DNA of 45,637 nt, taken from a virus. Its lineage: Duplodnaviria > Heunggongvirae > Uroviricota > Caudoviricetes. The stretch spans positions 1 to 45,637 of IMG/VR virus record IMGVR_UViG_2529292910_000009; one strand, written 5' to 3'. Made by a program: the position numbers. Numbering within the stretch: position 1 is the stretch's first letter; each line of letters starts with the position of its first letter. Below, piece after piece: positions 27,001-30,000 of the stretch.

Positions 27001-30000
27001 TCAGCTTCCTGTTTTGTAGCCACGGCATGACCGCTGATTAACAAAACTTTCCACTGTTCTGGTTTTAGCCATCTGCCGCACCACTGAACCTGTCGGGAGA
27101 TATCAGCGACCATCGCGTGAAATTTGGCATTTTGATCGAGATTCCGCTTGTAATCGGTGATGCGGATCGTAACGGGTTTGTCTTTATCGAGAGTTGTTGC
27201 AAGGATGGCGTTAATGGCGAATTGTTGCTGCTGCTTACTTCGGAGGAAGATAGTCTGGTTCATTATTCCCTCTCACTGGATTTTCCCAACAAAAAAGGAG
27301 CCGAAGCTCCTTTAGTTTCAGAATTCAAATTGTCTTGCCCGCAGGCTTTTCAGCATTGGCATGGCCCGCTGGATAATGGAACTTGACATGTCGAGACGTG
27401 TTACCTCCCTTAGTAGCGCGTCTCTGTTCTTCGTCACCATGTAGATGGTCTCAAACGCAATGTCATACAGCTTGTTCGTGTATGAGGAGTTCAGCTCTTT
27501 CATAATGGGATACAGGTGTTTGCTTAGGTCCTGGGCTTTTTCCATCCAGAGCTGCATGTAGCAAAGGAGGATGATTTCTTCGGCTGTGAATTGTGGCTGA
27601 ATCTGCGGCTGCTGTTCGGTTGGTGCTGTTTTTCCCTGGCTGAAATAGCAGTCTTCCAGTTTTTCGAATACCTCCCACGCCTGATCAGTTTCGAGCATTT
27701 TTGCGTGACGGGCTGCGCCGCGTTCTGTCCATAGGATGAGGGAGCGAACGTTACGGGCAATTTTCACAGAGTAGTTAAAAGCTACTCTGTGCTTGAACTC
27801 ACGTAAAGTTTCACCTTCAAGTTTGAAGAAGTGTTTTTCCTCAATGAAACGACCTTTGTTTTCGTGGTGATTCTGGCGAATACGAATAGCTTCTGTGCCG
27901 TAAAGGTGCGCCAAAAGTTCGGTAGTGATAACGGGGATCTGCTTGTAAGTAATCGTGGAGAGTGTTTCAACAGAAACTTGAGTTGTCATAATGACGCCCT
28001 CGAGTGGTTTCTAAACTATCACCACCGTCAGGTTCCTAATCATCGGGTGGCGAGACGTACAGGGTTAGGAACTACCGGGAAACCAACCGGCGAGCTTTTC
28101 AGCTCCCCTATACGCCCCACCATAATTCAGATGTGCGTGTGCATACGACAATAAAAAACACGCTCGCGGCGTGTCTCTGTCGCGGTTTCTATCCGGGGTT
28201 CCTAATCCCGACGCCAGATTTTGCTGGCGTGCGATGAATATAATCCCGGATACGCGACGTTGTCAAACTGATGGCATTGCAGATCCCTACGCAATGTAAC
28301 ACTATGTGTTATACATTAATAACGGAACAAAAAATGCGCATTTTTAAAAACGCCTGGTTTGAGCGATTTGCACGCAAAAACAAAATATCCGACCAGTCAC
28401 TGCGCGAAATTGTTAAACAGGCTGATAACGGGCTTATCTCAGCAAACCTGGGTAACGGCGTTATCAAGCAACGTCTGCCACGAGTCGGTGGCGGCAAATC
28501 TGGCGGTTATCGCACAATCATTTTCTATCGCGTCGGCACAAGGGCCTTTTTCGTATATGCATACGCAAAAAATGAACGTGAAAATATAACCGCTACTGAG
28601 GCATTTCGGAAGGGGCTCCTCACGTACTCAATCTAACAGATGAACAACTGGCACAACTGATTCTACAGGGTCAGTTTACGGAGGTACCCAATGAGTAAAA
28701 ATTACCGCAGTGATGCGCTTGCATCCGTACATGAAATGATGGAATCGCTTCATGATATCGGCGCAGTAACGAAACAGACTATGCGAGAATTCGATGAAAC
28801 TTGTCTCCAGCCAGCGCCGGTAATGTCTCCGGAAAGGATCCGTGCACTGCGCGAACGAGAGCATCTGTCTCAACCTGTTTTTGCCAGATACCTCAACGTC
28901 AGTAAAAACCTGATATCAGACTGGGAACGTGGTGTAAAACGGCCGGGAGGTGCCGCTCTTCGCCTTCTTTCAGTCGTAGAGAAAAACGGAATCCAGGTAA
29001 TATCATGATACTCCAATACAACAAAACCCGCCGAAGCGGGTTTTCATTAGAAGCACCTTTAGTTTTGCTGTTCTATTTTAAGCTTGATAGTTTCATACAA
29101 AACAATAGTTGCGCCTGTTTTACATAATTCCCGGCTGTCATACGCACGAGACCAATAACACAACCAGTTCTCGAGATCTTCTCGAGTATAGGTTTTGCAG
29201 GCCAGTCCCTCTGCCATTTCCACGATTTCATCGCCTGGTGCTGTTAACTCATAGCCATTCAACAACAAGAAGACATAACCAGCCATCATAGCTGTTCGTT
29301 TGTTTGCATTAGCAAATGGATGATTCTGAATCAGACTTTCAATCAATACTGATGCCAGTACAAACATGTCATTAGTCTGTTCATACCATCGAACCATGCT
29401 GGGACGAGACTGAGAAGAACTTAAATTATCAACACTCAGCACACTAACAGGTTCATCTGGTGTTTGAAGCTCAATTAAAAGGCGATTAATTTCGGTAAGA
29501 TCATCAAACGAAAGGTAGTGCACTCCTTCAACAATCTCAGCCATAGAGCACAATACCCATCATTACACTTTTGAAAGTTCTTCCATTGCCTTCTCGTAAC
29601 GAGAAAAACCGAAATCGAAAGCATTTTTCACCTGCTCACGATGAGTGCAATTTTCATCGATAGCCGGGCGCGGAGCTGCCACAACGCTTTTATCGCGAGG
29701 GGGAATAGTCAATCGCGGGTGTTTTTTTAGTGCGTAGCTCATTGGGTGTACCCTTACTTCTCCGTCCTGTTCTTTAACAAAAATCAAGTCAATACAAAAT
29801 TAGTCAGGCTAATGTTGTTAGCATAGCCTAATACCGATCGTATTCACAACCACAGTACGTGAAAAAACCCGCCGAAGCGGGTTAAGTGCGGGTGCGTTGA
29901 GGATGCCTGACACATCAGAGGTGGCGAGGGATTTCTCCCTCGCCTGGTCTCTTACTCCTCAGGTTCGTAAGCTGTGAAGACAGTGACCTCCGTCTGGCCG

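Follow-up and report, generated by a model that had tools for sequence, protein, structure and literature searches.

A HigB2/HigA2-type toxin-antitoxin cassette with a frameshifted toxin gene next to an isrK-family small RNA gene in the nin region of a lambdoid prophage

The closest described relative of the locus analyzed here is the HigBA2 module of Vibrio cholerae, which sits in the superintegron and provides the best PDB match (5JA8, 5JAA and 8A0X) for both encoded proteins as well as for the intact toxin when folds are compared. In this module, the toxin gene comes first, and in the antitoxin (104 aa) an N-terminal segment precedes an XRE helix-turn-helix (HTH) domain. The active site of VcHigB2 is formed by R51, R64, Y82 and K84 (PMC5416850), and the footprinted operator of VcHigA2, TGTACGC-N5-GCGTACA, covers the -10 element (PMC11006873). 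In the literature, the PF06296 family goes by the name HigB2/RelE, with the gene order toxin/antitoxin (PMC11980606). The founding HigBA system, Proteus vulgaris Rts1 HigB-HigA, resembles the present locus in that the toxin gene comes first and in that it combines a ribosome-dependent RNase of the RelE superfamily with an HTH antitoxin; however, Rts1 HigB belongs to another Pfam family (PF_HigB-like, PF05015) and lacks the C-terminal helix, and the architecture and the neutralization mode of its antitoxin differ as well (PMC5416850, PMC11980606). No Rts1 HigB or HigA chains were found among the PDB matches listed.

We analyzed a stretch of DNA of 45,637 nucleotides (hereafter, the window) from a virus of the class Caudoviricetes (IMG/VR record IMGVR_UViG_2529292910_000009). 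On the plus strand, it contains a pair of ORFs that form a type II cassette of the HigB2/HigA2 type, that is, a PF06296 "RelE" toxin gene followed by an XRE-HTH antitoxin gene:

28334..28636, plus strand: truncated toxin ORF, 100 aa, matching PF06296 positions 1-90 of 120 and aligned to intact alleles
28691..29008, plus strand: HigA2-type antitoxin gene, 105 aa, intact, with HTH_3, PDB and phrog_2104 matches

Unlike the V. cholerae module, the cassette resides in a lambdoid prophage, in the early-right (nin) region, and is oriented against the pR operon: all neighboring genes, encoding NinB, NinE, an ORF6N/P22_AR_C antirepressor-like protein, Fic/Doc and Hok, are on the minus strand. The first-pass annotation had described a HigBA-like pair, with the toxin gene preceding the antitoxin gene on the strand opposite to the surrounding genes, and this description holds. 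The profile HMM search proposed there, once run, returned PF06296 ("RelE") for the toxin ORF (126.8 bits, E = 6.6e-37, with a cut-off of 27 bits) and HTH_3 for the antitoxin, and the closest solved structures by sequence in the PDB are V. cholerae HigB-2 and HigA-2, respectively. The cassette is an accessory gene pair of the nin region that is transcribed against pR, and PF06296 "RelE" toxins are ribosome-dependent mRNA endonucleases.

The AF2 model of the intact homolog P0001 (pLDDT 84.8) shows a RelE/BECR fold resembling HigB2, and the top Foldseek matches of this model are all VcHigB2 structures (probability 1.00, TM 0.54-0.62); this comparison pertains to the intact homolog rather than to the truncated ORF of the window. 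There are also differences from VcHigBA2: sequence identity is only about 20%, the window toxin is frameshifted, and the PF06296 members considered here, unlike VcHigB2, are extended at the C-terminus by some 20 residues, modeled as a helix (105-113) and a strand (117-119). No NCBIfam model matches the toxin, and none of the PADLOC defense families matches the intact toxin, with the antitoxin yielding generic HTH matches only. The cassette type itself is already known, having been characterized in V. cholerae and cataloged as a family (PF06296), and the window allele is present in RefSeq. The locus offers little new biology; the value of the analysis lies in correcting the state of the toxin gene and the assignment of the operator. 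We consider it highly probable that the locus is a HigB2/HigA2-type cassette with a decayed toxin allele, and that the palindrome and the TATAAT hexamer at 28211-28244 belong to isrK and have no demonstrated link to the cassette.

The toxin gene had been assumed to be intact and functional. The ORF at 28334..28636 does exist, but it is not the whole gene; the rest of PF06296 is encoded in another frame, and the allele is frameshifted and truncated at the C-terminus:

28600..28601, plus strand: junction left by the in-frame loss of 6 nt (GAAAGT), a deletion absent from every other copy examined
28612..28615, plus strand: G-run with a 1-nt deletion, GGAAGG[C/T]GGC changed to GGAAGGGGC, from alignments and the haplotype table
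28615..28698, plus strand: 3' remnant of the toxin gene, out of frame, encoding APHVLNLTDEQLAQLILQGQFTEVPNE and a stop by frame translation

The 6-nt deletion removes two codons, for E90 and S91 of the intact protein, and the loss of one nucleotide from the G-run changes the frame after codon 93. The ORF product consists of native HigB2/PF06296 sequence in residues 1-93 and of out-of-frame residues 94-100 (GLLTYSI). PF06296 positions 91-120 are encoded in the other frame at 28615-28698, such that the full domain is not contained in one frame. The remnant comprises the last 28 toxin codons and, stop included, reaches 8 nt into the antitoxin gene, counted from its ATG; intact relatives have the same overlap. 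When the missing bases are restored in silico, the result is a 123-aa protein that covers PF06296 positions 1-120 of 120 (157.8 bits) and shares 98% identity with intact P0001 from E. coli. The intact E. coli prophage alleles P0001, P0121 and P0128 (123 aa) are 97-99% identical to the window at the DNA level, occupy the same place between isrK/ORF6N and doc, and are accompanied by an identical antitoxin (WP_000042397.1); compared with these alleles, the window carries the 1-nt and 6-nt deletions and encodes a 100-aa product. PGAP labels the two genes of the intact loci 'type II toxin-antitoxin system RelE/ParE family toxin' and 'helix-turn-helix domain-containing protein'.

The spacing of the two genes points in the same direction. 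The 54-nt gap between the toxin ORF and the antitoxin gene of the window was never found in relatives, in which the two genes overlap; the 8-nt overlap persists in the DNA of the window (28691-28698), just as it does in those enterobacterial relatives that were examined. Across 80 distant loci, the length of nearly all toxins is 121-129 aa; in most of these loci, an ORF of about 105 aa overlaps the toxin gene, beginning at or inside its 3' end.

As a result of both deletions, what is missing from the protein is the distal half of helix alpha3 together with helix alpha4 and the terminal strand, a part that is conserved throughout the family. Among 49 homologs, A96, A97 and E119 of the lost segment are invariant, and H99, L101, L103, Q107, I112, G115 and Q116 are nearly so. 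The window toxin is probably inactive or strongly impaired. The competing reading, a working toxin-antitoxin system in which the 100-aa toxin cleaves mRNA on the ribosome and is neutralized by the antitoxin, appears unlikely, even though it accounts for several features of the ORF. All four equivalents of the VcHigB2 active-site residues R51, R64, Y82 and K84 are encoded upstream of the frameshift (R47, R60, Y77 and K79, respectively, in the phmmer alignment; across the family alignment, R60 is invariant, R47 and K79 are nearly invariant, and position 77 is mostly F), as are the N-terminal helices and, up to residue 77, the four main strands of the prediction. The partner antitoxin has an undamaged ORF and shows strict conservation, and the 102-aa form of the same truncation is fairly common (at least 112 contigs), perhaps tolerated as still useful. 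Some residual activity is possible because the C-terminal helix of VcHigB2 carries no catalytic residue; no data on C-terminal truncation of a HigB2-type toxin were found in the HigB2 structure paper. Against a working toxin, the deleted segment includes the invariant and near-invariant positions listed above and is present in essentially all homologs (most of the 120 best matches are covered to 98-100%), extra lesions have accumulated as expected of a dead gene, and E. coli copies commonly carry independent frameshifts at other points of the gene. With its truncated toxin, the window copy would probably give a negative result in a toxicity or abortive-infection assay.

The exact allele of the window is that of E. 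coli DEC6E (protein P0124, ECDEC6E_1950 / WP_001423512.1), recovered in GCA_000249675.2 and in one Logan assembly, and the 100-aa product is known from this one strain only. Among complete E. coli genomes, 22 share the 1-nt deletion in the G-run, many of them from O104:H4 isolates that were sequenced independently, and IMG/VR contigs have it as well. These counts come from a census of complete E. coli genomes with allele-specific 38/39-mers and megablast (deletion in 22, C in 11 and T in none), which reached the closest subfamily only; for the wider picture, protein-cluster counts were used, in which the intact 123-aa forms, among those listed, occur on more than 1,100 contigs. This distribution makes it extremely unlikely that the frameshift arose in sequencing or assembly, with an intact real gene reading GGAAGG[C/T]GGC and GAGGAAAGTGCA at the two sites. 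A 1-nt deletion in a short G-run, in an exact allele that derives from one strain, is what such an error would look like, but the identical deletion recurs in the 22 complete genomes and the IMG/VR contigs, a 6-nt deletion is an atypical type of error, and the allele appears in two assemblies (possibly from data on the same strain).

A further reading is that the frame is rescued by low-level ribosomal slippage. If the ribosome slipped by -1 on the G-run (AAG GGG C), the tRNA-Gly on GGG would re-pair perfectly with GGG, and the downstream frame is open up to the native stop, potentially yielding a little full-length (121-aa) toxin. However, the canonical X XXY YYZ heptamer is absent, the deletion is polymorphic rather than conserved, with C or T in the intact alleles, and other alleles are broken at unrelated sites; we regard slippage as most improbable. 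Decay of the toxin gene remains the preferred reading. The toxin is broken in 13 of the 19 close copies, by several distinct lesions, and at least five distinct frameshift lesions were identified in E. coli (A4, the site-3 deletion, and the P0127, P0132 and P0014 types). Second lesions on the background of the 1-nt deletion are A4 in O104:H4 and the 6-nt deletion in the window. PGAP calls the fragments of broken genes (68, 85, 98, 102, 104 and 112 aa) bona fide toxins, and therefore the counts of toxin-antitoxin systems in E. coli genomes are inflated.

None of the 19 close copies has a damaged antitoxin ORF. The antitoxin combines an N-terminal segment of about 45 residues with a C-terminal XRE HTH domain (HTH_3 at residues 50-94, E = 1e-7), an architecture shared with VcHigA2 at nearly the same length (105 vs 104 aa). 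Its best PDB match is V. cholerae HigA-2 (5jaa_A, E = 8e-8, residues 45-99), and it also matches phrog_2104 (E = 3e-43), with the N-terminal segment lying within the match. In a departure from the V. cholerae protein, no sequence similarity was detected between this N-terminal segment and residues 1-38 of HigA2; the segment is presumed to be disordered and to neutralize the toxin. The gene has a Shine-Dalgarno sequence of its own, GGAGG at 28680-28684, and the antitoxin is predicted to be still made from this strong ribosome-binding site. The exact antitoxin sequence is found on at least 1000 contigs, and shortened forms are rare (2 contigs each).

The contrast between at least five distinct toxin lesions and 19 of 19 intact antitoxin ORFs, together with the independent GGAGG ribosome-binding site, could be taken to indicate that the antitoxin is retained by selection as an orphan after toxin loss, an extension of the decay scenario to which we assign a low likelihood. 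Such an orphan could neutralize HigB2-type toxins encoded by other prophages or by phages entering the cell, or else act as a transcription factor with other targets. The asymmetry, however, is expected in any case, given that loss of the toxin is harmless and loss of the antitoxin is lethal as long as the toxin works, and the only target found in the window is the palindrome of the cassette itself. Furthermore, because the antitoxin sequences are identical, the lineages with broken toxins appear to be very young, and there would therefore have been little time for the antitoxin to decay. The stronger proposition, that recurrent independent toxin loss combined with strict conservation of an independently translated antitoxin reflects selection for an orphan that shields the lysogen or the prophage from HigB2-type toxins of related phages (anti-addiction or superinfection immunity), or that has become a regulator, is quite doubtful.

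The DNA upstream of the cassette has known relatives in the isrK-orf45-anrP locus of Salmonella Gifsy-1 and the immI c4 antisense system of phage P1. The Gifsy-1 arrangement (PMC4825925) is similar to that in the window: a promoter is followed by an sRNA gene of about 77 nt, its intrinsic terminator and, further downstream, an antirepressor-type gene. It is in this unit that the first-pass annotation had placed a promoter-operator belonging to the cassette, composed of the TATAAT hexamer at 28239-28244 and the inverted repeat ACGCCAG-N6-CTGGCGT at 28211-28230. Both elements are present, but neither could be retained in the proposed role:

28153..28230, minus strand: isrK-family sRNA gene, outside the cassette (Rfam RF01394, 69.2 bits with a gathering score of 50, model positions 1-77 of 77)
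28237..28266, minus strand: leftward isrK promoter, TTGACA (28266-28261), an 18-nt spacer and TATATT (28242-28237), 11/12 in the promoter scan

The inverted repeat is stem 1 of the minus-strand isrK RNA, the first stem-loop of which runs from 28230 to 28211; the terminator, a stem with a U-run, is at 28174-28153, and the fold energy is -27.8 kcal/mol. In covariance-model alignments, stem 1 is preserved in VT2phi_272, owing to compensatory changes, and in PhiR12_3, owing to a G-U pair; these alignments were used because MAFFT with RNAalifold on four isrK copies mis-registered the first hairpin (3-nt length difference). The isrK -10 element ends 6 nt ahead of the 5' end of isrK and overlaps the plus-strand TATAAT, and both promoter hexamers are conserved in O104:H4, ML35 and PhiR12_3. 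As a plus-strand -10 element, TATAAT was rejected: no -35 partner passed the scan, the hexamer is TATAGC in ML35 and PhiR12_3, and it lies 90 nt from the toxin ATG, in DNA common to phages that lack the cassette. Neither motif is statistically unusual, with 9 occurrences of TATAAT in the window vs 16.6 expected and at least one perfect inverted repeat with 7-bp arms in 38% of shuffles of the 845-nt region. The two units also separate in nature: relatives of the cassette occur without an adjoining isrK, and the isrK-C4-antirepressor unit is found without the cassette in other phages.

Rfam also gives a full-length C4 match, and the C4 target model c4-a1b1 additionally recognizes the isrK hairpins of PhiR12_3. 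In the window, isrK is transcribed divergently from the cassette and heads a putative isrK-C4-antirepressor unit. This unit differs from its described counterparts in that the downstream gene encodes an ORF6N/P22_AR_C protein; a search between C4 and the ORF6N gene for a coupled orf45/icd-like ORF found none of 20 aa or more that ends at the ATG of this gene. An EMSA on the palindrome at 28211-28230 would probe an sRNA hairpin; the site that merits such an assay is the one at 28295-28313, which partly coincides with a possible promoter:

28295..28313, plus strand: candidate operator, TGTAACAC-TAT-GTGTTATA, a near-perfect 8-3-8 palindrome 20 nt upstream of the toxin ATG
28277..28305, plus strand: putative weak promoter, TTGCAG (28277-28282), a 17-nt spacer and CACTAT (28300-28305), as read by eye

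The segment 28295-28313 is the only upstream block conserved among cassettes with toxins that are 59-100% identical. It is unique in the window, against a chance expectation of 0.01 matches, and no second copy that could serve as another target of the antitoxin was found there. It also shares with the VcHigA2 operator the 19-bp span, the TGTA...TACA ends and the position over the -10 element, which is putative in the window. On these comparisons, 28295-28313 is likely to be the true operator of the cassette.

The putative promoter, the -10 of which falls inside the candidate operator, is below the threshold of the consensus promoter scan. The same arrangement is seen in the Salmonella P0107 loci (TTGCAG-17-TACTAT), and in the copies with intact toxins position 28300 is T (TACTAT). 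TATACA and TACATT, considered by eye as -10 elements nearer to the toxin ATG, have no -35 partner and were discarded. Autoregulation by the antitoxin, at this site instead of 28211-28230, is plausible, and the antitoxin would most likely still repress the cassette promoter through the conserved palindrome.

At the other end of the cassette, a hairpin lies between the convergent antitoxin and doc genes:

29023..29044, strand-neutral: hairpin AAAACCCGC-CGAA-GCGGGTTTT

The bidirectional hairpin reported earlier as separating the cassette from the convergent doc locus is real, although its position is 29023-29044 and not 29033-29054. It folds with -12.8 kcal/mol on the plus strand and -19.0 kcal/mol on the minus strand, with none of the 200 shuffles being as stable, and is probably a two-way intrinsic terminator.

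The HigBA-like module recognized in the first-pass annotation is a known HigB2/HigA2-type toxin-antitoxin pair, annotated in RefSeq and located in a prophage. Both plus-strand ORFs exist where they had been placed, opposite in orientation to the flanking genes, which are all on the minus strand and together make up the early-right region of a lambdoid prophage, including DUF1364/YbcO, NinE, NinB, an ORF6N/P22_AR_C antirepressor-like gene, a Fic/Doc toxin and hok/sok. Several E. coli strains, O104:H4 among them, are annotated with the same layout at 99% identity, and the exact toxin allele of the window is ECDEC6E_1950 (WP_001423512.1) of E. 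coli DEC6E (contig AIFZ01000022.1).

Features of the cassette region
27318-27989, minus strand: ORF6N/P22_AR_C antirepressor-like gene
28043-28127, minus strand: C4 antisense RNA (Rfam RF01695, full-length, 66 bits), between isrK and the ORF6N/P22_AR_C gene
28153-28230, minus strand: isrK sRNA (Rfam, full-length, 69.2 bits; gathering score 50)
28277-28305, plus strand: putative weak cassette promoter TTGCAG-17-CACTAT, read from the sequence, below the promoter-scan threshold
28334-28636, plus strand: toxin ORF, 100 aa
28691-29008, plus strand: antitoxin ORF, 105 aa
29023-29044: hairpin, stable on both strands, probable terminator
29059-29553, minus strand: Fic/Doc toxin (TIGR01550, E 1.4e-35)

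The toxin ORF matches the Pfam family PF06296 'RelE' (E 6.6e-37), the antitoxin ORF contains an XRE helix-turn-helix (residues 50-94), and the nearest solved structures are, respectively, HigB-2 and HigA-2 of V. cholerae. When an AlphaFold model of the intact E. coli homologue (pLDDT 84.8) was compared with the PDB by Foldseek, the top hits were all HigB2 chains (probability 1.00, TM 0.54-0.62). A 2025 review lists PF06296 as a family variously named HigB2, RelE or StbE, with ribosome-dependent mRNA degradation as its activity and the gene order toxin then antitoxin (PMC11980606). Thus, the original assignment is right and can be narrowed to HigB2/HigA2-like.

The toxin, by contrast with the earlier reading of it as intact, is truncated by a frameshift: its match covers only positions 1-90 of the 120-position profile, and past the stop codon another frame reads ...APHVLNLTDEQLAQLILQGQFTEVPNE*, with the out-of-frame remnant ending at 28698, 8 nt inside the antitoxin gene. 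Alignment of the window with three annotated copies located the indel sites, namely an A-run (A5 in the window, A4 in the three copies), a 6-nt deletion (GAAAGT) after 28600 that is present in the window only, and one base absent from GGAAGG[C/T]GGC at 28612-28615, common to the window and O104:H4. With the missing bases put back, the gene encodes a product of 123 aa, which spans the whole PF06296 profile (157.8 bits) and is 98% identical to a real E. coli 123-aa protein (P0001). In enterobacterial relatives, the toxin and antitoxin genes overlap by 8 nt, so the 54-nt 'intergenic gap' of the window is a frameshift artefact; among 80 distant loci, the toxins are nearly all 121-129 aa long and, in most, an overlapping ORF of ~105 aa follows. 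The window cassette is a decayed allele, with a truncated toxin and an intact antitoxin.

The model of the intact homologue comprises strands 2-6, 37-49, 59-77 and, last, 117-119, and helices 7-15, 20-31, 87-101 and 105-113. The window toxin is native up to K93 (equivalent to K95 of the intact toxin), with E90-S91 missing, and therefore has only half of helix 87-101 and neither helix 105-113 nor the last strand. The lost segment includes A96, A97 and E119, invariant among 49 homologues, and the nearly invariant H99, L101, L103, Q107, I112, G115 and Q116. We infer that toxin function has probably been lost, and go no further because R47, R60, Y77 and K79, which align to the VcHigB2 active-site residues R51, R64, Y82 and K84 (PMC5416850), are all kept, and because the HigB2 study reports neither a catalytic residue in the C-terminal helix nor a truncation experiment (PMC5416850).

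Nineteen close copies were compared: the window itself, 15 IMG/VR contigs and three annotated records. Of these, six have an intact toxin (123 aa), ten carry the A4 frameshift (five of them with the 1-nt deletion too), two have the 1-nt deletion alone (102 aa), and one, the window, combines the 1-nt and 6-nt deletions; the antitoxin ORF is intact in all 19. In the haplotype table, A4 is linked to one SNP, suggesting that it arose once, with recombination afterwards, and the 1-nt deletion arose separately. The latter was found in 22 complete genomes and is therefore not a sequencing error. Further independent frameshifts occur in the short toxin forms P0127 (near codon 91) and P0132 (an A-run near codon 80) and, in a sister subfamily, in the P0014-type short form. 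In the protein collection, the intact toxin forms among those listed account for ~1,170 contigs and the broken ones among those listed for several hundred; the window's toxin allele is on one contig and its antitoxin on at least 1,000. Such repeated toxin breakage beside a conserved antitoxin is expected of chromosomal toxin-antitoxin pairs, alone shows no new function, and is the only, mildly interesting, thread of this locus. PGAP does not treat fragments of the frameshifted gene as pseudogenes: those of 68, 85, 98 and 112 aa (P0125, P0126, P0131, P0133), whose starts are non-native, are annotated as ordinary CDSs for a 'type II toxin-antitoxin system RelE/ParE family toxin'; RefSeq fragment annotations are found at 4235-4492 of comparison locus L001 and 3176-3514 of L002.

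The promoter-operator attributed to the cassette, a palindrome ACGCCAG-N6-CTGGCGT (28211-28230) with TATAAT (28239-28244), belongs instead to the neighbouring isrK. The palindrome is exactly positions 1-20 of the Rfam isrK model (stem, CAAAAU loop, stem), and the best sigma-70-like site of the region, TTGACA-18-TATATT on the minus strand (28266-28237, 11/12 matches), stops 6 nt short of the isrK 5' end and shares bases with the plus-strand TATAAT. ML35 and PhiR12_3 have TATAGC in place of the plus-strand hexamer, with the minus-strand hexamers unaltered. Judging by substitutions among the copies, the stem behaves as RNA: in PhiR12_3 it is kept via a G-U pair, possible only in a minus-strand transcript, and in phage VT2phi_272 it is ACGGUCG/UGACCGU, with three pairs altered on both sides. 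Furthermore, VT2phi_272 and many Stx2a phages have the DNA of 28150-28252 but a ParD-like antitoxin gene in the cassette slot, and of five loci with cassette relatives, four lack isrK and the fifth has it ~1.5 kb off, on the far side of the cassette. Taken alone, neither TATAAT nor the 7-bp inverted repeat is rarer than chance. The layout matches the Gifsy-1 isrK locus, with its promoter, terminated sRNA and antirepressor gene (PMC4825925), and isrK, C4 and the ORF6N/P22_AR_C gene together resemble a control unit of the immI type (phage P1) or isrK type (Gifsy-1). The isrK hairpins of PhiR12_3 (L003 3008-3060) additionally match c4-a1b1, a model of the C4 target. The isrK-adjacent slot in 933W-like Stx2 phages (VT2phi_272, L019 2667-3644; many Stx2a phages) holds the ParD-like antitoxin gene (RHH type, with no toxin annotated beside it) together with an HTH gene and a gene for a small lipoprotein; this slot looks like a cassette-exchange hot spot.

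Cassette-specific DNA begins near 28267. When the upstream regions of cassettes with toxins 59-100% identical were aligned, the sole conserved block was TGTAAYACTATGTGTTAYA (28295-28313 in the window), a near-perfect 8-3-8 palindrome that occurs once in the window and ends 20 nt ahead of the toxin ATG. Its 19-bp span is like that of the footprinted VcHigA2 operator, TGTACGC-N5-GCGTACA, which extends from just past the -35 over the -10 (PMC11006873). The block at 28295-28313 is a better operator candidate than 28211-28230, and the -10 of the putative TTGCAG-17-CACTAT promoter, which in Salmonella relatives is TTGCAG-17-TACTAT, would fall within it. Position 28300, inside both the candidate operator and the -10, is a C/T polymorphism: T (TACTAT) in all six intact-toxin copies and the two with the 1-nt deletion alone, C (the weaker -10 CACTAT) in all ten A4-frameshift copies and the window. 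The C may weaken the promoter in association with the broken alleles, or may simply have hitch-hiked with them. A perfect 16-nt palindrome across the toxin start codon, AAAAATGCGCATTTTT (28329-28344), is not conserved in diverged cassettes and so is probably incidental.

The bidirectional hairpin proposed beyond the antitoxin gene is real but lies at 29023-29044 rather than 29033-29054; no shuffle folds equally well. The cassette, doc and the adjoining hok/sok type I locus (29952-30276, minus strand; Hok Pfam E 2.9e-22, sok Rfam 116.9 bits) place three toxin-antitoxin loci within ~2 kb of the nin region. The small ORF preceding doc (29563-29787, minus strand; 74 aa as listed, 59 aa in RefSeq) has phrog_2208 (unknown function) as its sole hit, with no match to Phd or any further antitoxin family, and may encode a partner of Doc that is not yet characterised. 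Elsewhere, an STnc100 sRNA match (24871-25032, minus strand, 76.8 bits) covers model positions 1-206 in only 162 nt, compared to 206 nt and 165 bits in O104:H4, so the window copy seems to have a ~44-nt internal deletion. Close to the window start, there is an sRNA-Xcc1 family match (287-375, plus strand, 69 bits), a family also found in Salmonella prophage loci with cassette relatives (L107 834-918, L108 149-232).
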